The position numbers and the translations under genes were made by a program. Shown here one piece after another: positions 4,158 to 21,941 of a stretch of 26,194 bases of DNA. The notes under the pieces were generated by a model. The model searched no databases, was not told where the DNA came from, and saw only the letters and a list, made by a program, of their open reading frames with translations. The stretch is from a virus, in the UHGV virus genome UHGV-0110177; one strand, written 5' to 3'. Positions within the stretch are counted from its first letter, which is position 1. Every line of letters begins with the position of its first letter.

Positions 4158-7049
4158 TTATGCCTGTACGCGCAGCGCTTCAAGGCGGCGCACATCAAAA
4201 TCGTTGAGTTCTTCGGCGTAATCTTCGGTAATCGGCGCTGGCCATTCGCCAGTGTCGAATCCGTTCGCGATGGCGCGCATTGCTTTGCGGTATTCCAGCA
4301 TGCCGAGTTCAAGCAGTTCTTCGGATGCCTCGATGATGGCGATCCAGTGGTAGTTCTCGTCTTTGTTGACGAATATCCAGAAAAACTGGTCCAGCGCTGC
4401 GGTTTCGCAGTACATGGCAGCGCTCAGGTGATAATCGCGATCGATGATTTCCCGGTGCAACTTCGCGCGCAGACCTTCCTGCTTGATATTCCACATGCTG
4501 ATAGTCTTCAGGTCAGCGCCGATGCGCAGGCCGCCCATGTCAATTTCAAGGTCAGGGCGCACGCGGATTTCCAGCCCGGTTTCCTCATCAATACCGAAAT
4601 AGCTCACCTCTACGGCGCGGTTCGGATGCGTCAGCAGCTTCCCGGCGGTCGGGTGATTCAGCAGCGCTTTCTGGATGGCCTGCGCGGTGCTCAACTGCTG
4701 GCGGGTAACCAGAATTTTATCGCCGGGGTTTTCGCGCCATGCGTCAAGCAGCTCGTCGGCAAACACTGTTTCAGGTTTGACGGATTTCACTGCCTGAATC
4801 AGATCCGCTTTGGTGCCGGATACTTTCAACGGCTGTGGCTTCTGTGCTTCCTGTGCAACGAGATCAGGATTGATGATCGCCAGTTGCTCAAGCAGCGCGT
4901 CACGGCTTCCGCTGGTTTTAACCGGCGCGGGCAGGGTGGCGTTGTATTCTTTGATGCAGGCCTTCATTGCCGCTGCTGTATGCTTAGTCCCGTTTTCGAT
5001 GCGCTGGAACTCTTCAGGCAATAGCTCATATGACGCATACGCTTCGTCGACGGATGCCCCAAGCGGTAATGGCGCGGGCAGGGTGGCGTTGTACTCTTCC
5101 AGCAACGCTTTGATATCGTCTGCGGTGAGTAATGCCGGCAGGCTGGCGTTGTGTTCGTCGATAACCGCGCGGATCGTCGCTGTCGTCGTGAGCGCGCCTT
5201 CCGAGATTTCCGGTTCGATGCTGAACTCTTTTTCCAGTTGTTCAGGCTGTAACGCCAGCGCGTGCACCAGGTTCCCCATATCCAGAACTTTGGTGCGTTC
5301 TTTCTGGATGGTTTTGGATACGTGGCGCGCTTCGAAATACATCAGACTTACACGTGCATCTTTGACCATTGTCGAACTGATGCCATTCGCCGCGTGATAT
5401 ACCTCGTTCGGTACGCCTTCATAACGCCCCGGCTCGAAGTATTCCGGCCACACTGACGCTGGCTCTGGTTCTTCCTGTTGCATTTCCGGCACGTTTTGTT
5501 GCGTTTCTGGCTCAGAATGGCTTGCAGAATCGTTGTTCTGGCTCACTTCCGGCTGATGGTGGTCTACATCGGCTTGCTCGCCGGTATCTGCCTCTTCACC
5601 ATTCCCCAAATCACTTTCGCTTGCGAGCAGCGCATCACCAGTCTGTTCTTCATTACCGTCAGTTTCTTGAACCTGCACATCGGCGGCGTCCTCATTTTCC
5701 GTTTTTTCTCCCTCATTTGAGGCGGCGTTGTAGTCTTCATGAACCCACTTCGGATCGTTAGGGTCACTGATACCTTCAACGTAATCACCGCGCGCAGCTG
5801 CGAGTTGTCGGTTTACTTCTTCAACGGATGGTTCATCCTGTCTTACTGGCGTTGGCATAGGCATGGACGAACGTCCGCAGGCAATATCAACGACAAGCGG
5901 ATCGGGATTGGCGTGGTCAGTTTCTGTCAGCACCTTATTCAGGTACTCGCGGTGGCGAAACGGGGATTTGTATAGTTCATCTGGTGTGGTTTTTACTGTT
6001 GCAACGATGCATGCGCGGGAATAGTCCAGACCACCAGGCATTGACACGAACAGTTCGCGCGTTGCCAGCCACTCAGGGTCGTCAACTGCGTTCATGATTG
6101 AGTTAGCCTTTAGTTCGATCTGCAATGGCAGAGAATAAATATCAAATTCGTACTGACGCGCCAGCAGGCCTAAGGCTATTTCAAATTCAAGACCGAGAGT
6201 GGTCTGGGGCATCTTGCGATCGGATGCAATTCCGCCGCCAGCGTTCGCGCCGCTTTCAGTACGCTGAATAGCTGATACACGATTACCTTTGCACCACTCT
6301 TTAACGAGCAACCCGCGATCAATATGAGGGGTATCGAACCATGTTTTCAGAAACTGGATAACGCTTGCCAGCTCAGGGATTTTGCCATCAGCAGGAAACA
6401 CGTTCTTAACGGCATTTACCGCTTTATGGATATCGTGTTCAATGGCCTTTTTGAATGGTTCAACATTCTCAGCCGCAAGTAAAATGTTCTGGACATATGA
6501 GTTATCAGTGTCCATTTCCAGAGCGAGAATTGCTTTTTTCTGCTCTGCATCGACATGATAGAGATACTCGCCATCGCCAATATGTTGGGCCAGTATGCGA
6601 TGACGGAAGGGCATCGTTGCCACAACGGTTAACTGAGGGTGTTCAGGTAGATCGCCATTGTCTTCAGTTGACGCCTGATCGTGCTGGATAATTTCGCCAG
6701 TTTCGGTATCAACACCATCAACGATACGCTGACGGGCGACGGCAACGGCCTCAGAAGAGGGCAGCGTAACACCGGGGATCTGTACCCAGGTCATGTTGTC
6801 TTTGCCGAGCTGGTAGAAATCGCAGAACGTTAAGCTGAGTTCGCCTTCCGGCGGCAGTTCGTTAACGACAGGGAAATTAGTGGCGACAGCTTTAAAATAA
6901 TCTTTCAGCTTTGCGCCGGATTTAATCAGGAGATAATCCAGTGTGGCATTTGCCGATTCAAAATCATCACTGCACCAGAGAACCGCATCTTTTTGTCCTG
7001 ATGATTTTTTTGCTTTGCGGACTAAAAATACAGGATTAGTTCCACTCAT
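4158..7049 (-). CDS. recE: Exodeoxyribonuclease VIII (RecE-like), 963 aa
   Basis: N-terminus from ATG at 7049 (MSGTNPVFLVRKAKKSSG...VLWCSDDFES...DYLLIKSG...KAVATNFPVVN) matches E. coli RecE N-terminus from memory; conserved LNKVLTETDHANPDP...DIACGRSS block; SD GAGGAT upstream; the ORF-track start at 7259 is a 70-codon over-extension. Confidence 0.85.
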   Translation of the reverse strand: MSGTNPVFLVRKAKKSSGQKDAVLWCSDDFESANATLDYLLIKSGAKLKDYFKAVATNFPVVNELPPEGELSLTFCDFYQLGKDNMTWVQIPGVTLPSSEAVAVARQRIVDGVDTETGEIIQHDQASTEDNGDLPEHPQLTVVATMPFRHRILAQHIGDGEYLYHVDAEQKKAILALEMDTDNSYVQNILLAAENVEPFKKAIEHDIHKAVNAVKNVFPADGKIPELASVIQFLKTWFDTPHIDRGLLVKEWCKGNRVSAIQRTESGANAGGGIASDRKMPQTTLGLEFEIALGLLARQYEFDIYSLPLQIELKANSIMNAVDDPEWLATRELFVSMPGGLDYSRACIVATVKTTPDELYKSPFRHREYLNKVLTETDHANPDPLVVDIACGRSSMPMPTPVRQDEPSVEEVNRQLAAARGDYVEGISDPNDPKWVHEDYNAASNEGEKTENEDAADVQVQETDGNEEQTGDALLASESDLGNGEEADTGEQADVDHHQPEVSQNNDSASHSEPETQQNVPEMQQEEPEPASVWPEYFEPGRYEGVPNEVYHAANGISSTMVKDARVSLMYFEARHVSKTIQKERTKVLDMGNLVHALALQPEQLEKEFSIEPEISEGALTTTATIRAVIDEHNASLPALLTADDIKALLEEYNATLPAPLPLGASVDEAYASYELLPEEFQRIENGTKHTAAAMKACIKEYNATLPAPVKTSGSRDALLEQLAIINPDLVAQEAQKPQPLKVSGTKADLIQAVKSVKPETVFADELLDAWRENPGDKILVTRQQLSTAQAIQKALLNHPTAGKLLTHPNRAVEVSYFGIDEETGLEIRVRPDLEIDMGGLRIGADLKTISMWNIKQEGLRAKLHREIIDRDYHLSAAMYCETAALDQFFWIFVNKDENYHWIAIIEASEELLELGMLEYRKAMRAIANGFDTGEWPAPITEDYAEELNDFDVRRLEALRVQA

Positions 7050-7176
7050 TGTTTTATCCTCACTTCGTGTAGAATGGAGGCGCCTTAATGGCACCTCGGT
7101 TTTACCAAGTAGAATGTCCGGTTCGCTTTGGTCGGTTAGACCGGACAGGGCAAGCCCACCTCGTGTGGGCTTTTGC

Positions 7177-7464
7177 TTAATGAACGGTGCTGAAAACTTT
7201 TTCTGAGTAATCGAGTTTGTAGCTGCGGTAGTTGCCAAACCCGGCGTTATCGCCATCACTTACTTTCACGGACAACATTGAAATTGCCTCTACAGCACAA
7301 AGAGGACAGTCGAACTTGCCGAATACATAGCCACCGTCAAGAATGACCGTGACCGCGCCCGTTTCGGCTGAATGAATAACGCCTGATACTTTCTTCTCGC
7401 AGTTGAATACAGCCAATTCTTTATTCACTGCTTTCAGGTTCATTTCGATTTTTACGATTTCCAT
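7177..7464 (-). CDS. Hypothetical phage protein (95 aa)
   Basis: ORF in early-left operon. Confidence 0.5.
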   Translation of the reverse strand: MEIVKIEMNLKAVNKELAVFNCEKKVSGVIHSAETGAVTVILDGGYVFGKFDCPLCAVEAISMLSVKVSDGDNAGFGNYRSYKLDYSEKVFSTVH

Positions 7465-11510: not shown

Positions 11511-11629
11511 AAGGGTGAAGACCGCTGTGCTCCAACACAGACGGCCTTCGGGTGCAATTCGTTGCGTACTCATTGCGAGATCATTATGACAAAGAGTTTT
11601 TCAAAACACCAGGCAAGGGAGGCATAGCT

Positions 11630-12628
11630 ATGTCGAATGTCGCCTACGCCGATTTTGCGGCGGTACGCGCCGCCAGGAGCAACCGGATGGAAAACCAGAA
11701 GACCGGATTCATCCCGTTGTACCGGAGTGTACTCAAGCAGCCATGGTCAGAAGATGTTTACCTGCGTACGTTGTGGGATAACCTGCTTTTGGGCGCTGCC
11801 AGCCAGCCATACACAGCGAGCTTTAAAGGTCGCCAATGGCCGCTACAAACCGGACAACTGGTGACCACGGCGGCCGATCTGGGCCTGAAACTACGTGACA
11901 GAAAAGGCAACCCAACAAGCCGTGATGCTGTTGAGAGAATGCTGACGTTTTTTGTGCGTGAAGGGATGATTTCCATTGAGGGAGAACGGCAAAGAGGGCG
12001 TGTGATCACGATCTCAAATTATGTCGAATATGCTCAAAAAATGGACAATTTGCCCGCACAAACTTCCGCACATACCAGCGCACATATGCCCGCACATGGC
12101 GAAGCCAGTAACGGCGCGGATTTGGCGGTAGGTAGCGCACATGAAAGCGCACATACATCCGCACAAACAAGCGCACATCATGAACAATATATATTAAATA
12201 CTAACGTATTTAATGTACGTCAGAGAATTTCCAAAATTGTTCCTGATGCAGCAGTCCAGACTCCGAAAGGTGACAAGTGGGGGACATCTGACGATCTCCG
12301 CTGCGCAGAGTGGATGCTGGCGCTGCGTGACATCACCAAACCATCCCTGAAAAAACCGAATATGGCTGGCTGGGCGAATGACATACGCCTGATGCGCCAG
12401 CTGGACGGACGCACCCACAAAGAGATTTGTGAGTTGTTCAGATGGGCCTGCAAAGACTCGTTCTGGTACAAAAATATTCTCTCCCCCGCAAAGCTCCGCG
12501 CCAAGTGGGACACGTTAACCCTTCACCGTGAAGACACTACCCGCAAGCCACGCGCAGATGTCAGCGCAAGCAAATCCGAAACCGGCCCGCACTGGAACAG
12601 TGCTGAAGCATGGGAGAAATTTTTATGA
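11630..12628 (+). CDS. Replication initiator (lambda O-like replisome organiser), 332 aa
   Basis: Position immediately upstream of P-like gene; embedded iterons plus AT-rich tract inside gene as in lambda O; SD AGGGAGG 8 nt before ATG 11630. Confidence 0.7.
   Translation: MSNVAYADFAAVRAARSNRMENQKTGFIPLYRSVLKQPWSEDVYLRTLWDNLLLGAASQPYTASFKGRQWPLQTGQLVTTAADLGLKLRDRKGNPTSRDAVERMLTFFVREGMISIEGERQRGRVITISNYVEYAQKMDNLPAQTSAHTSAHMPAHGEASNGADLAVGSAHESAHTSAQTSAHHEQYILNTNVFNVRQRISKIVPDAAVQTPKGDKWGTSDDLRCAEWMLALRDITKPSLKKPNMAGWANDIRLMRQLDGRTHKEICELFRWACKDSFWYKNILSPAKLRAKWDTLTLHREDTTRKPRADVSASKSETGPHWNSAEAWEKFL
12053..12225. repeat. Candidate replication origin: 8 copies of (C/G)CGCACA(A/T) in two clusters of four (12053-12098, 12134-12179), then AT-rich tract 12183-12225
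   Basis: Repeats at 11-13 bp spacing read directly; encode the AH-x-SAH protein repeats; architecture matches ori-lambda inside O. Confidence 0.6.
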
Positions 12629-13320
12629 CCCCGGATCTTTATCGTGCAATTCAGAATCGCGACAGCGAAGTGCTATCGCGCATGGCTGGAGATTCTTACG
12701 ACGGCCGTAAGGTTGTTAACAGTGACGCTGAAAAGCTGGTGGATATGCTTTTTGAAAATCTCATGCAGGTATTTCCGGCATCCACTCAGACGAACCTACG
12801 TACTGGCGATGATATTCGCGTTGCAAAGCAGCAATGGATCGCCGCCTTTGCTGAGTCAGGCATCACCTCCCGTGAGCAACTTTCCGCCGGAATGCAGAAA
12901 GCCCGATCCAGTCAGTCACCGTTCTGGCCGTCGCCCGGGCAGTTTATTTCGTGGTGCCGTGAAGGGAGTGGCGCGCTGGGAGTCAGTGTGGACGACATCA
13001 TGAGCGAATACTGGCGCTGGCGGAAACTTGTTTTTCGCTATCCGACGAGTGAGCAATTCCCCTGGAGGGATAAAAACCCGCTGTATTACCACGTCTGCCT
13101 GGAGTTGCGCCGTCGTGGAACGGAGGGGCAACTCAGCGAAAAGGAACTTATCCGGGCTGCTGGCGACATCCTGCATGACTGGGAAAAACGCACTCTTGCT
13201 GGAAAGCCCATACCACCCGTTCGTCGCGCTATAGCCGCACCTTTGCAGGATCGTGGGCCAACACCAGCCGAGTTGTTAATGGCGAAATACAAGCAGCGTA
13301 AAGACGCCGGGCTGATTTAA
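12625..13320 (+). CDS. Replication protein P-like helicase loader (231 aa)
   Basis: Recalled similarity to lambda P (FPAS...QWIAAFAESGITSREQLSAGMQKAR...PFWPSPGQFISWCRE); ATGA overlap with O stop. Confidence 0.85.
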   Translation: MTPDLYRAIQNRDSEVLSRMAGDSYDGRKVVNSDAEKLVDMLFENLMQVFPASTQTNLRTGDDIRVAKQQWIAAFAESGITSREQLSAGMQKARSSQSPFWPSPGQFISWCREGSGALGVSVDDIMSEYWRWRKLVFRYPTSEQFPWRDKNPLYYHVCLELRRRGTEGQLSEKELIRAAGDILHDWEKRTLAGKPIPPVRRAIAAPLQDRGPTPAELLMAKYKQRKDAGLI

Positions 13321-17589: not shown

Positions 17590-17758
17590 AATGTTTCAAC
17601 TGCACGAAATCTACCATGCAGGGTTTCCTGCTGCGGTAATGCTGTGCCGCCGTCGTTCGCCGCGGCGCTCGTCCGGGTGGATCTGCCCGAACTTTGCCAG
17701 CCGAAAGAAATGGCTGCGTAATGTATAATCCCTCTCAAAGCATCGAGGGGGATTCATC

Positions 17759-18007
17759 ATGTCAGACTGGAACATCGCAGCAAAACCGAAAGACGATCAG
17801 GACAAAATCAACGTGGATTTAGCGGCCAGCGGCGTTGCGTACAAAGAGCGCCTGAACATGCCGGTTATCGCTGAAGTGGTGATGCGCGAGCAGCCAGAGC
17901 ATCTGCGGGACTATTTCCTTGAGCAGTTACGATATTACCGGGAGCAGAGTATTTCTCTGCCAAAAGCATTTGACCCTCGATATCTCAAACAGGAGGAAGG
18001 TAAGTGA
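17759..18007 (+). CDS. Hypothetical protein (82 aa), upstream partner of AT-rich gene
   Basis: SD GAGGGGGA; candidate -10 TATAAT at 17724-17729. Confidence 0.6.
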   Translation: MSDWNIAAKPKDDQDKINVDLAASGVAYKERLNMPVIAEVVMREQPEHLRDYFLEQLRYYREQSISLPKAFDPRYLKQEEGK

Positions 18008-18639
18008 AATTTTCTCGAATCGAACAAAGCCCAATAATGGACAAGGGAAACTACGTTAAAATTGATCATGATTTTGGCTATTTTTTAGATCCGAATAAGA
18101 TGGCTTCGATAGCTAACTATGAAGATGAGTCAGCAGCACTATTAAAATTAATGCTAATTCATGAGGACTTTCTTCGAGTTGTTATTGAGAACTTAAGGCC
18201 TGAGGGTTCAGAGAAGTACAATGCCATCAAAAGCTATAAGTATTTTGCACCGAAGTTGTCAGCTGCCGTTCTCTTAGGGCTTCCTGTATCACTTGCTGAT
18301 GCTATGTCTGAACTCAACAGCATTCGAAACAAGTACGCTCATAAAATTGACTATGTCATTACAAATGAAGAAGTTGACAAGCTTGCGGAAACGATTAAAA
18401 AAATAAAAATCGAAGAAATTAACCACGGTGGCTACATACATCAAGTTATTGAGCCAATCCTTAAGGATGGGATCTACGCAGTGGCTCTGATGAACGATCT
18501 ACCTCCTGATTTGGAAGAAAATCGTCTTCGTATATGCAAATTAGTCACTAGCGCACACTGCATGTGCTTACTGGGGGCTTTTTGGTTAATTAATACTCTC
18601 CACGTTAAGGACAAACTAAAACTTTCCATGTCTGAGTAG
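18004..18639 (+). CDS. AT-rich hypothetical protein with R-x4-H motif (RNKYAH); possible HEPN-like protein (211 aa from GTG; 200 aa from ATG 18037)
   Basis: Low GC compared with neighbours; GTGA overlap with upstream gene; motif read directly, family assignment not verified. Confidence 0.55.
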   Translation: MKFSRIEQSPIMDKGNYVKIDHDFGYFLDPNKMASIANYEDESAALLKLMLIHEDFLRVVIENLRPEGSEKYNAIKSYKYFAPKLSAAVLLGLPVSLADAMSELNSIRNKYAHKIDYVITNEEVDKLAETIKKIKIEEINHGGYIHQVIEPILKDGIYAVALMNDLPPDLEENRLRICKLVTSAHCMCLLGAFWLINTLHVKDKLKLSMSE

Positions 18640-18804
18640 GGCAGGAGGAACGTTTCCACACAATTTATTTTCTGGAATCAACCCGCCATAATCATGTCAT
18701 CGGAGCCTGAACAACTCCGGTGACTTCTGCGCATTTAAGTCCCCTTAAATGCGACCACCATCTCAACTCCTCACCTGCCACAGATGCAAATGCTCTTAAT
18801 GATT

Positions 18805-18828
18805 AAACCCGCTTCGGCGGGTTTTTTT
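18805..18828 (+). terminator. Rho-independent terminator (CCCGC-ttcg-GCGGG then T7)
   Basis: Read directly. Confidence 0.75.
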
Positions 18829-18899
18829 ACGCCTGAAATTTGTGTCTATGGGTTAACAATTCGTGCTCTTAAAACGTTGATCATTTCGCTTTATAGGTA

Positions 18900-18919
18900 T
18901 ACTGTATAAAAACACAGTA
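18900..18919 (+). promoter_or_regulatory. LexA box (TACTGTATAAAAACACAGTA) upstream of dinI
   Basis: Matches CTGT-N8-ACAG SOS box consensus; 19 nt upstream of dinI ATG. Confidence 0.8.
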
Positions 18920-18937: not shown

Positions 18938-19171
18938 ATGAAAGTTGAGTTAACTATTGATCGAACAAAGAAACTTCCTGATGGTGCAGTGCCAGCATTA
19001 GAAGCCGAACTGTTACGTAGGCTCAGCCAGAACTATGAAGGGGTAAAACTTACAATTCGCCGCGCAGGGGCTGATGGCCTGAGTATTCTGGGGGGTGAAA
19101 AAGGGGACAAGCAGCGCATTGAGGAGATTCTTCAGGAGACCTGGGTAAGCGCCGACGACTGGTTTTACTAA
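18938..19171 (+). CDS. dinI: DinI-like DNA-damage-inducible protein (77 aa)
   Basis: Recalled similarity to E. coli DinI (KQRIEEILQETWVSADDWFY C-terminus); LexA box upstream; SD GGAGG. Confidence 0.85.
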   Translation: MKVELTIDRTKKLPDGAVPALEAELLRRLSQNYEGVKLTIRRAGADGLSILGGEKGDKQRIEEILQETWVSADDWFY

Positions 19172-21011: not shown

Positions 21012-21143
21012 AGCCCGAAGTTATTGAGTCTCTTCGCTGGCGCTGGCTGCGTCTTTGCATTTATCGCTACCGGGGATCTTTTCCGGTGGCATACCGCATC
21101 CTTCGCAATTACATCCGCATTGAAGCAAAACGGGAGCATCGAA

Positions 21144-21941
21144 ATGAAGCTTGAGTCCTTACCAAAATATTTTTCGCCTAAATCCATGATGCCCGGCGCT
21201 GTTCCATGCGGTATTTCAGCAGATACGCTGACTATTACTGACGTAATGGCATCCCTCGGGCTACTTTCCGCAAAAGCAGCGGTGGGTATTGAATTGTATC
21301 TGGCAAAAGCCGGGGTTTTATCTTCAGACAATATCATTGCCTACATCAAGAAGCTGGCAGAGCAGCGCGCAGAACGGCACGGATCGCTGCGGAAAATGGA
21401 AGAGAGTGAACGATCAAAATTTCTCGGTATTCTGGCGCGGTATGTTTTCCGCGATTATTCCCTCAGCGCGGCAAGCCTGGTGACGTGCAGTAGCTGTCAT
21501 GGCGCTAAATTTATTGATGCTGAGGTTTTCACGAACAAGGTTACTTACCCGGATGGTAAGCCACCAAAATGGGTAAAAGATACGAAAGGCATTTCTCCTT
21601 CTGACTGGGAAGTGTGGAAATCAGTACGTGAGCAAGTGCGCGTCGTGTGTAAGACGTGCGATGGTAAAGGCCATGTGAAAAACGAATGCCGTTGCCGGGG
21701 GCGCGGAGAAATTCTCGATAAGAAAAAATCAGAGTTGCAGGGCGTTCCGGTTTATAAAAAATGCCCGAGATGCAAGGGAAGAGGTCACCCACGCCTCAAA
21801 GATACCGAGATTTTTAAAGCGCTGGGAGTAACGGAAATGGTATGGCGGTACAACTATAAACAGTTTTTCGATCGGCTGGTGGAGCATTGCCATATTGAGG
21901 AATCCTATGCAGAAAAGGTTCTGGGAAACGTGACTCGATGA
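21144..21941 (+). CDS. Late-gene antiterminator Q-like protein (265 aa) with CxxC zinc-binding motifs
   Basis: Position immediately upstream of promoter plus short terminated transcript and lysis genes; CKTCDGKGH...CRCRGRG...CPRCKGRGH; SD GGGAG 7 nt before ATG. Confidence 0.6.
   Translation: MKLESLPKYFSPKSMMPGAVPCGISADTLTITDVMASLGLLSAKAAVGIELYLAKAGVLSSDNIIAYIKKLAEQRAERHGSLRKMEESERSKFLGILARYVFRDYSLSAASLVTCSSCHGAKFIDAEVFTNKVTYPDGKPPKWVKDTKGISPSDWEVWKSVREQVRVVCKTCDGKGHVKNECRCRGRGEILDKKKSELQGVPVYKKCPRCKGRGHPRLKDTEIFKALGVTEMVWRYNYKQFFDRLVEHCHIEESYAEKVLGNVTR

Follow-up and report, generated by a model that had tools for sequence, protein, structure and literature searches.

A putative HepS-family abortive-infection nuclease in a lambdoid prophage, and the nin-region leader remnant downstream of its gene

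HepS (STM14_3211) is a single-protein defence nuclease of the prophage Gifsy-1 of Salmonella Typhimurium 14028, which cuts tRNA on sensing the tail-tip protein of another phage (PDB 9OIJ, 9OIK; Sargen et al., Nature 2026, PMC13043305). It needs no partner protein for its action and by default is not toxic, as was shown experimentally. Its trigger is a peptide of the siphovirus tail-tip protein J (lambda J 902-933, F924), bound by the N- and C-terminal tails, both of which are disordered in apo HepS. The activity requires R100 and H105, and the allosteric pair Y20/I107 repositions H105. Activity also depends on a homotetramer with F66, K78 and L83 at the interface, of which K78 is essential. 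The anticodon loops of tRNA-Thr, tRNA-Ile and tRNA-Ser are the targets, and their cleavage leads to abortive infection. Phenylalanine at the 924-equivalent position of J makes Gifsy-1 restrict itself, and a phage with a HepS-activating J can still escape (PMC13043305).

In PrrC/RloC-type anticodon nucleases, Csm6/Csx1, HEPN-MNT toxins and RemN of RemAIN, the Rx4-6H site is likewise formed across a dimer. These HEPN nucleases act on RNA, often tRNA, and defend by growth arrest. A nuclease that is switched on when it directly binds a structural protein of a phage is a feature specific to HepS.

The window (the whole stretch of viral DNA analysed, 26,194 nt) contains a lambdoid accessory region with O and P at 11552-13320 and Q at 21024-21941, and a gene for a 211-aa protein related to HepS is situated between them (Table 1). 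The sequence-only reading had described this gene as AT-rich and as overlapping an 82-aa gene upstream, and both observations hold: its GC content is 38.5% (50.2% in the upstream gene, 49.2% in the whole window), and the two ORFs share GTGA. The GTG start is backed by N-terminal homology (MKFSRIEQ versus MKYSRVEQ in HepS). The order of elements on the 3' side is that of Salmonella hepS (terminator, LexA box, dinI, an 82-aa ORF, DUF1367), and positions 18802-18842 are 85% identical to the Gifsy-1-type hepS-dinI spacer of locus L004 (6730-6768); the prophage locus is thus the same. The LexA box, identified by the CTGT-N8-ACAG consensus, stands upstream of dinI, and the next transcription unit is therefore separate. 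In the window, unlike the Salmonella locus, a remnant of a nin-region leader is inserted 5' of the terminator, and the start of the gene overlaps the upstream gene, a homologue of the DNA polymerase III theta subunit, so that the gene lacks the spacer with a promoter that Salmonella hepS has. That the lysogen expresses it is for this reason an assumption.

Table 1. Positions of the features of the hepS-like locus in the window
Feature	Positions	Strand	Remarks
DNA polymerase III theta-subunit homologue, 82 aa	17759..18007	+	Neighbour, not functional partner; Pfam, PHROG and NCBIfam matches
Shine-Dalgarno AGGAGG	17991..17996	+	Inside the theta coding region, 7 nt 5' of the hepS-like GTG; read from the sequence
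HepS-like gene, 211 aa, GTG start	18004..18639	+	Putative HepS-family single-protein HEPN abortive-infection nuclease
Codons of the HEPN catalytic motif R108-N109-K-Y-A-H113	18325..18342	+	Equivalent to HepS R100, N101, H105; alignment to HepS
Truncated lambdoid 'nin leader' module (promoter and structured leader)	18664..18793	+	Normally 5' of ylcH/ninB; megablast and alignments
Promoter-like element, -35 TTTATT (18664-18669), -10 CATAAT (18687-18692)	18664..18692	+	Overlooked in the sequence-only reading
Hairpin 1, TCATCGGAG / CTCCGGTGA, loop CCTGAACAA	18697..18723	+	Folded; overlooked in the sequence-only reading
Hairpin 2, GCGCATTTAAG (18729-18739) / CTTAAATGCG (18744-18753)	18729..18753	+	Inverted repeat of the sequence-only reading; 10-bp stem, loop TCCC (UCCC in RNA); folded
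Intrinsic terminator AAACCCGC-TTCG-GCGGGTTT and T-run	18805..18828	+	Folded; common to the Gifsy-1-type hepS-dinI spacer
LexA box TACTGTATAAAAACACAGTA	18900..18919	+	5' of dinI; read from the sequence, conserved in the Gifsy-1-type locus
DinI-family gene	18938..19171	+	Pfam PF06183, 4.7e-25; same 3' neighbour as Salmonella hepS

The 211-aa protein belongs to the HepS family. Residues 1-208 align with HepS residues 3-203 (phmmer, E 7.5e-64), and the identity over the full length is 51-53%. The segment SIRNKYAHKIDY (residues 106-117) contains RNKYAH (R108-H113), in which a HEPN-like Rx4-6H motif had been recognised from the sequence. This is the sole Rx4-6H match in the protein, and a single one in 211 residues is, taken alone, about what chance would give. 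It gains meaning because R108, N109 and H113 show no variation among 13 close homologues (alignment A1) or among 71 distant ones (alignment A3), which bears out the proposed motif and answers the question of whether its R and H are conserved. The predicted model has the alpha-helical fold of HepS and of HEPN proteins, and in the structure comparison HepS is followed by the HEPN-fold MtlR/YggD, by HEPN toxins and by Csm6. Together with the homology to HepS, this comparison supports the suggestion of a HEPN-like fold of the abortive-infection type.

The profile search for HEPN and Abi families that the same reading had proposed gave a divided answer: HEPN-clan matches are concordant and centred on the motif, but they are weak and none exceeds its threshold. 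HEPN_RiboL-PSP, HEPN_Swt1 and DUF4145 score 15 bits against Pfam cutoffs of 23-28. No Pfam, NCBIfam or PADLOC model matches the protein at threshold (NCBIfam has no model for it at all), PADLOC giving weak Csm6/PbeC motif matches only, and HEPN matches among other members of the HepS family are scattered and all sub-threshold. Since the profile thresholds are not reached, membership in the HEPN superfamily rests on fold and motif. A tblastn search of 50,697 phage records yielded no homologue of the protein. Complete assemblies that encode exactly this protein include GCA_014856055.1, GCA_030333435.1 and GCA_052315835.1.

HepS and the 211-aa protein have in common the all-alpha HEPN fold (predicted for the latter), the R-N-x-x-A-H motif and a similar length (210 and 211 aa). 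The allosteric pair Y20/I107 is kept as Y26 and I115, and the variants found in the family at these two positions, F and L, are the kind of substitution tolerated in HepS. The tRNA-contact residues K71 and N101 are kept as K79 and N109. At the tetramer interface L83 is kept as L91, whereas F66 is replaced by Y72 and K78 by S86. The low-confidence tails of the predicted model (residues 1-21 and 209-211) correspond to the disordered tails of apo HepS, but they differ from these in length, the N-tail being longer by 6 residues (an insertion) and the C-tail shorter by 7. Three of the four residues that hydrogen-bond the J trigger are changed (S13K, S202M, T203S), and only D15 is kept. With PrrC/RloC, Csm6/Csx1, the HEPN-MNT toxins and RemN, the protein has weak profile and fold similarity, and the sequence similarity outside the motif is negligible. 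Unlike them, it has no ATPase, CARF, MNT or restriction partner.

The upstream gene encodes a theta homologue over its whole length (Pfam PF06440, DNA_pol3_theta, 3e-33, 113.8 bits versus a cutoff of 34.6), as is also indicated by NCBIfam PRK10969 (102.8 bits, cutoff 97) and phrog_1105 (3e-37). Phage-borne theta homologues are known, and the closest counterparts of the 82-aa protein are Hot of phage P1 and E. coli HolE, with the same Pfam domain. Unlike Hot and HolE, the 82-aa gene borders a slot for changing cargo genes on its 5' side, and no link with HepS function was found. In other phages theta precedes at least 10 unrelated ORFs at equally tight spacing (-4 to +17 nt), and lambdoid phages thus have a cargo slot of variable content directly after theta. 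Two other cargo proteins from this slot contain an RNNLFH motif; they gave no Pfam or PADLOC match and no profile relation to HepS.

The overlap of the two genes had been read as the sign of a two-component unit, in which case the 82-aa and 211-aa proteins would form a toxin-antitoxin or sensor-effector pair, in which the 82-aa member would serve to neutralise the HEPN toxin or to regulate it. The 4-nt GTGA overlap, the shared ribosome-binding context and the fact that the pair is unchanged in every contig with this exact protein, and also in viral contig L051, agree with such a unit. It is nevertheless very improbable and largely refuted by the genomic contexts of both genes. The 82-aa product is a genuine homologue of theta, and theta genes are followed by many unrelated ORFs at like spacing. 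Members of the hepS family have three kinds of upstream neighbours: theta (the window and L051), a dATP/dGTP pyrophosphohydrolase (L004, Gifsy-1 type) and, in E. coli, a 58-aa chimeric ORF in which only the last ~12 theta codons are left, fused to another ORF. As judged from genomic context, no partner gene is conserved with the family. An antitoxin conserved with its toxin, as in HEPN-MNT and type II systems, is not found here, the neighbour being theta, which is not conserved with hepS, and Pfam and PADLOC searches revealed no MNT-type or other antitoxin signature near the 211-aa gene. HepS itself is non-toxic and self-sufficient (PMC13043305).

The 211-aa protein is thus probably a HepS-family relative acting as a stand-alone prophage HEPN nuclease in abortive-infection defence, a reading held with good confidence that draws on sequence comparison and on analogy. 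A catalytically inert HEPN-fold regulator of the MtlR/YggD kind, which would not be a nuclease, is hardly credible: identity to MtlR/YggD is only 8% versus 51% for HepS, and all members of the family keep the R-N-x-x-A-H motif, for which MtlR-type proteins have no need. As a HepS-like nuclease, the protein would probably be produced by the lysogen as a tetramer without activity, by analogy with HepS of Gifsy-1, and the theta gene would provide a ribosome-binding context only. Its flexible N- and C-tails could bind a late protein of an infecting siphovirus (in the case of HepS, J of the tail tip). This contact would shift the Rx4H sites (R108/H113) into a new position, and the anticodon loops of specific tRNAs would be cut, which would stop phage production. 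Tetramer formation, the trigger bound directly, the tRNA targets and the defence itself are here attributed to the 211-aa protein by analogy with HepS. The changed trigger contacts and tail lengths, S86 in place of the essential K78, the lack of a promoter spacer, the sub-threshold profile matches and the F924-bearing J of E. coli relatives speak against this reading.

The nature of the trigger presents a puzzle. Close relatives of the 211-aa protein, unlike HepS, occur in E. coli prophages whose J has the HepS-triggering F924. In all three of the E. coli prophages examined that encode an 88%-identical homologue, SCU-113, A2 and JCKP02, J matches lambda J at every residue from 895 to 940, among them F924, and under the Gifsy-1 rule this would mean self-restriction. 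The same three prophages look intact, with int, xis, recombination, immunity, replication, Q, lysis, head and tail genes. Given the diverged sensor tails as well, the trigger or the mechanism of self-protection may differ from that of HepS. One possible solution, which we propose tentatively and at less than even confidence, is that this clade is of the same family and senses differently: it would not be activated by the central-straight-fibre peptide of a lambda-type J, and another phage cue or another restraining factor would allow prophages with a lambda-type J to carry the gene safely. The three changed contact residues and the altered length of both tails point in this direction, as do the lambda-identical trigger peptides of the three E. 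coli prophages in view of the self-restriction that F at this position imposes on Gifsy-1 (PMC13043305). On the other hand, the equivalents of D15, Y20 and I107 are kept, it may be that the E. coli prophages cannot be induced or that they carry an inhibitor, and a phage with a HepS-activating J can still escape (PMC13043305). The J of the window's own prophage lies outside the sequence within reach, where only siphovirus-type tail tube and tape-measure genes are seen (in a phage with an identical small terminase, on a 10-kb flank ending at the tape-measure gene).

The 3' UTR is strongly structured, as had been claimed: the minimum free energy of 18640-18830 is -61.9 kcal/mol versus -36.9 +/- 3.6 in shuffled sequences (z = -6.9). 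The inverted repeat noted earlier does fold as a hairpin (hairpin 2), and the terminator is likewise confirmed as a GC-rich stem-loop with a T-run; both the MFE and the centroid folds give it an 8-bp stem AAACCCGC/GCGGGUUU and a UUCG loop, the T-run extending to 18828. A simple consensus scan listed only an overlapping, weaker alternative hairpin at this place. The 17-nt spacer of the promoter-like element contains the AATCAA half of a TTGATT-N6-AATCAA palindrome, and a consensus promoter scan did not call the weakened -35 of the window. The suggestion that the hairpin could be an RNA element stands in part, since the hairpin does exist and has been conserved in evolution; it is, however, part of a general promoter and leader module of lambdoid nin regions and not specific to hepS, and the window copy is truncated and atypical.

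By sequence, the 3' UTR is a mosaic, in which a truncated nin-region module with two conserved hairpins is joined to a terminator of the Salmonella hepS type. Of 5426 E. coli genomes searched by megablast, 2127 contain the module, as do phages HK639 and 82; in the K-12 prophage DLP12 it occupies the ybcM-ylcH spacer, which corresponds to the region upstream of phage 82 orf33 (GenBank X92588) and in which the -35/-10 and both hairpins are homologous to those of the window. In X92588 a putative -35/-10 is annotated at the promoter-like site, and hairpin 1 as a 'possible regulator-binding site'. In contrast to the phage 82/DLP12 module, the window copy ends after ~130 nt and is followed by another terminator and dinI instead of ylcH/ninB, its -35 is weakened and its hairpin-2 loop is inverted. 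In contig L051, theta and hepS occur together with ninB and a module that is intact. Among 92 variants of the module, the -35 hexamer is precisely where conservation sets in, and hardly any variation is seen in either hexamer, the -35 being TTGATT in nearly all other copies versus TTTATT in the window. Approximately 40 stem variants of hairpin 1 elsewhere keep 8-12 bp. In the covariation analysis of this hairpin (alignment A7), 94.9% of cells are paired (8-47% in slid controls), and double changes occupy 44 cells versus 12.4 +/- 2.5 in shuffles, none of the 500 shuffles reaching the observed value. Eight different stems of hairpin 2 elsewhere all close a GGGA tetraloop, and its reverse complement TCCC is confined to window-type copies; these variants were folded singly, since RNAalifold on the MAFFT alignment mis-aligned hairpin 2.

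Short promoter-proximal structured RNAs in lambdoid regulatory regions are also represented by IsrK of Gifsy-1, AgvB/AsxR, the Pas sRNAs and the lambda 6S/PR' leader. Like the module, IsrK is followed by a small ORF and by genes of the nin/Q region. AgvB/AsxR and PasA/C/D are located downstream of Q/PR', whereas the module is upstream of ninB, and the AgvB/AsxR and Pas sRNAs are rejected as its identity on account of this position and the absence of an Rfam match. Full-length module copies of phages 82 and HK639 gave no match at E <= 1 with the Rfam covariance models, and no match in Rfam to isrK, AgvB, AsxR, Esr41 or STnc100. With the window 3' UTR, Rfam at gathering and permissive thresholds gave only chance, terminator-driven matches, isrK (15.6 bits) being one of them. 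Hairpin 1 is presumably neither boxB/nut nor an HK022-type put site: its loop has 9 nt, there is no consistent closing pair of a GNRNA pentaloop, and a promoter stands directly upstream.

A functional RNA could be produced from the window 3' UTR, either as an sRNA of ~130 nt (from the internal promoter-like site, starting near 18697, to the terminator at 18828) or as a 3'-UTR-derived RNA from the hepS transcript. The intact -10 CATAAT, the strong terminator after it, the fold z-score of -6.9, the structural selection on both hairpins in the parent module, the CU-rich single-stranded stretch at 18764-18781 between hairpin 2 and the terminator, and an arrangement identical in all contigs with this gene are in favour of it. 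We nonetheless consider it unlikely: the window departs from the module at its most conserved features (TTTATT for the -35 TTGATT, UCCC for the GGGA tetraloop), it lacks the third hairpin as well as ylcH/ninB on the 3' side, and the copy resembles a recombination remnant. It also has no Rfam match. The combined proposal, in which sensor tails re-tuned to a trigger other than F924 or an undescribed self-protection are joined, as a separate matter, by a 3' UTR derived from an undescribed widespread 'nin leader' RNA, is possible, although we would not expect all of it to hold.

HepS has been known since 2026 from one Salmonella prophage; the family is extended here by a separate clade, with members in Enterobacter, Klebsiella, Citrobacter and E. 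coli, in which the catalytic core is conserved and the sensor tails have diverged. Because the relatives' own prophage J has the HepS-triggering residue, the clade offers a natural test of trigger specificity and of the evolution of prophage self-compatibility. The cargo slot after theta is worth mining for defence genes. A further outcome is an RNA leader close to the promoter in lambdoid nin regions, which is strongly conserved, shows covariation and is not represented in Rfam. If the proposal is true, the nin leader RNA, present in more than 2000 E. coli genomes including the DLP12 prophage of K-12, may control the expression of the block from ninB to Q.

The window spans a lambdoid prophage's early-right and nin region, with genes for integrase, RecT, a RecE/ExoVIII-type exonuclease, repressor, O, P, Q, lysis proteins and the small terminase. 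As noted in the sequence-only reading, the 211-aa ORF is AT-rich (GC 38.5% versus 50.2% for the upstream ORF and 49.2% for the window), its GTG start is overlapped by the TGA stop of an 82-aa ORF, and its product contains a single Rx4-6H motif (RNKYAH, R108-H113). AGGAGG lies 7 nt 5' of the start. The HEPN/Abi assignment proposed for this gene was correct and could be sharpened to a HepS-family gene, predicted to encode a stand-alone anticodon nuclease for defence.

Pfam returned three sub-threshold HEPN-clan matches centred on the motif, PADLOC only weak Csm6/PbeC matches and NCBIfam none. PHROGs places the protein in phrog_5712 (1e-67), which has no assigned function. A word-indexed search gave only 20 homologue clusters (Enterobacter, Klebsiella, Citrobacter, Salmonella, Kosakonia, Serratia), and a profile search against 1.84 billion representatives gave 311 proteins at E <= 1e-3, most alignments spanning residues ~25-135. 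R108, N109 and H113 are invariant in both the close homologue set and the 71-sequence distant set. The alignment-based AlphaFold2 model is all-alpha and confident (pLDDT 81.5, pTM 0.80), with low confidence at residues 1-21 and 209-211. Identity was settled by matches to solved structures (9OIJ/9OIK; Foldseek E 5.8e-15, TM 0.85-0.96; PDB sequence search 7.5e-64, full length), and membership of the HepS family is very probable.

HepS (STM14_3211) is encoded on Gifsy-1 between replication genes and late regulatory genes; homologues of 35-50% identity occur in Enterobacteriaceae and related families (PMC13043305, Nature 2026). This constitutively expressed 'HEPN solo' abortive-infection protein is by default an inactive, non-toxic tetramer, which requires F66, K78 and L83. 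The siphovirus tail-tip protein J activates it: residues 902-933 of J, with F924 as the key residue, form a composite beta-sheet with the N- and C-terminal tails of HepS, both of which are disordered in apo HepS. Activation is relayed by Y20/I107, and the enzyme (catalytic residues R100, H105) then cuts tRNA-Thr(GGT) and a small number of other tRNAs in their anticodon loops; in a docking model, N101 and K71 contact the tRNA. Gifsy-1, -2 and -3 escape self-restriction, having I instead of F at J 924 (PMC13043305).

The window protein keeps the catalytic and tRNA-contact residues (R108, N109, H113 and K79), the allosteric Y26 and I115, and the interface residue L91, whereas interface K78 and F66 are replaced by S86 and Y72. 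Three of the four trigger-hydrogen-bonding residues are altered (S13 to K19, S202 to M209, T203 to S210) and only D15 is retained, as D21; 6 residues are inserted in the N-tail, and the C-tail is shorter by 7. Therefore, the catalytic core is conserved, and divergence is greatest on the sensing surfaces. By analogy, the mechanism of the protein would probably be that of HepS, although its trigger may be another one.

Under HepS-type logic, a siphovirus prophage with a hepS-like gene would need a non-triggering J. A phage with a small terminase identical to that of the window has tail tube and tape-measure genes and is therefore a siphovirus. An 88%-identical homologue occurs in three apparently complete, lambda-like E. 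coli prophages (SCU-113, A2, JCKP02), whose J proteins (1132 aa, 87% identity to lambda J) all match lambda at residues 895-940, F924 included. This is the opposite of the self-compatibility rule seen in Gifsy-1. The diverged sensor tails and the F924-type J together suggest a clade answering to a different cue, another self-protection mechanism or prophages that do not propagate; the first of these is possible though somewhat doubtful. The SCU-113 prophage is integrated beside icd.

The 82-aa protein is a homologue of DNA polymerase III theta (Pfam PF06440, 3e-33; NCBIfam PRK10969, above cutoff; phrog_1105, 3e-37), and the proposal that both proteins form a two-component unit had to be abandoned. 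The Salmonella-type locus has no theta gene: a dATP/dGTP pyrophosphohydrolase gene is followed by a 108-bp AT-rich spacer and hepS. Eighteen of the 5426 complete E. coli genomes have the homologue (88% protein identity) behind a 58-aa ORF that is theta-derived in its last ~12 codons only (DPRYMKQEEDK), with the same 4-nt overlap. Among 99 viral contigs carrying the nin leader module described below, theta lies <=3 kb upstream of it in 24, followed by at least 10 unrelated ORFs (66-211 aa, at -4 to +17 nt) or by none; HK639 and E. coli M37H serve as annotated examples. HepS also works alone in experiment, and its authors report no conserved partner gene (PMC13043305). These contexts and the self-sufficiency of HepS speak against a functional theta-hepS pair; the tight overlap belongs to the post-theta cargo slot and does not point to a two-component system.

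Post-theta ORFs of 195 aa and 175 aa in two IMG/VR contigs (L047 and L138) encode R-N-N-L-F-H (Rx4H) near the C-terminus. Neither product has a Pfam or PADLOC match, and profiles show no relation to HepS; both may be additional candidates for HEPN-type defence in this slot. A TolA C-terminal-domain ORF (PF06519, 7.8e-11) with a lipoprotein-like N-terminus adjoins the theta-hepS pair in every contig carrying this exact 211-aa protein and looks like another moron. Upstream of theta, a perfect TATAAT precedes an imperfect hairpin (ATCCCTC...GAGGGGGAT) taking in the ribosome-binding site of theta. The theta-hepS transcript may have its promoter and leader here, although no -35 was called by the consensus scan. 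A 31-nt segment upstream of theta is 87% identical to one downstream of Salmonella-type hepS and may go back to the rearrangement that gave the present gene order.

Features of the window and of related loci
Feature	Position	Strand	Remark
RecE/ExoVIII-like ORF	4158-7259	-	
isrB match	7087-7175	+	
TolA-domain ORF, 143 aa	17071-17502	-	AT-rich (41% GC)
Match to L004 (Salmonella-type hepS locus)	17684-17714		GAACTTTGCCAGCCGAAAGAAATGGCTGCG; L004:6680-6710
TATAAT	17724-17729		
Putative promoter and leader	17724-17758		
theta homologue, 82 aa	17759-18007	+	
HepS-like gene, 211 aa	18004-18639	+	
Post-stop bases	18640-18649		GGCAGGAGGA
nin leader module	18664-18793		
Inverted repeat	18729-18753		
CU-rich stretch	18768-18781		UCCUCACCUGCC
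Terminator	18805-18828		
LexA-box-like palindrome	18900-18919		TACTGTATAAAAACACAGTA
DinI-family gene	18938-19171		
Full module copy, phage 82	L001:46-237		
Full module copy, HK639	L002:2998-3189		
Full module copy, K-12 DLP12	L030:4781-4972		ybcM-ylcH spacer
E. coli prophage stretches	L210:19827-20632; L211:3624-7022; L213:2264-5662; L214:2297-5695		SCU-113, A2, JCKP02

Behind hepS, the inverted repeat and the terminator fold as had been proposed, and the whole 3' UTR fold is far more stable than that of shuffled sequence (z = -6.9). The hairpin is a real, selected structure; it is not an element specific to this locus, belonging instead to a general lambdoid nin-region promoter/leader, degraded here. 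By megablast, this module is the only widely conserved part of the region; matches came from 2127 of 5426 E. coli genomes as well as from phages HK639 and 82. There it measures ~130-170 nt and immediately precedes ylcH(orf33)/ninB; the K-12 copy forms the ybcM-ylcH spacer of DLP12.

Across 92-116 distinct IMG/VR variants, conservation starts exactly at the -35 hexamer TTGATT, one half of a TTGATT-N6-AATCAA palindrome, with a -10 (CATAAT) 17 nt after it. Hairpin 1 has a conserved loop (YCUGAACAM) on ~40 different stems, all of 8-12 bp and with many G.U pairs on the + strand. In its alignment, 94.9% of cells are paired (slid controls 8-47%) and 44 are double-change cells, versus 12.4 +/- 2.5 in shuffles, 0 of 500 of which reached the observed value. 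Hairpin 2 closes a GGGA tetraloop with eight different stem sequences; covariation in both hairpins is strong. A third hairpin and a T-rich tract (CAGATGCAGAAATGCACCTGCGATTTTCTGCAT) lie 5' of the ylcH/ninB ribosome-binding site. A putative promoter is already annotated in the GenBank record of phage 82, as is hairpin 1, under the label 'possible regulator-binding site'. As a terminated leader or an sRNA, the module may control expression of ylcH-ninB-rusA-Q. Neither the window copy nor the full-length copies match any Rfam family. Elsewhere in the window, Rfam isrB (RF01386, Hfq-binding sRNA) is matched (74.7 bits, E 6.8e-12), at a site that adjoins the RecE/ExoVIII-like ORF at its 5' end or overlaps it there.

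The window copy differs from typical modules in its -35 (TTTATT) and in the hairpin 2 loop, which is the reverse complement, UCCC, seen in window-type copies only. It ends abruptly at ~18793, where it meets a terminator with 85% identity to that after Salmonella hepS. The viral contig L051 has the order theta, hepS, intact module, ninB, presumably the ancestral arrangement; the window copy was probably left over from recombination. In the predicted fold, the post-stop bases pair with the CU-rich stretch, better with CCTGCC of the window than with CCTTGTC of typical modules; this pairing may be coincidental. After the terminator, a perfect LexA-box-like palindrome precedes the DinI-family gene. 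SOS regulation of the unit downstream of hepS is probable, since Gifsy-1 has the same LexA-box/dinI arrangement.

What still makes this locus interesting is the possible re-tuning of the sensor tails, the cargo slot beside theta and a nin-leader RNA that has no annotation.
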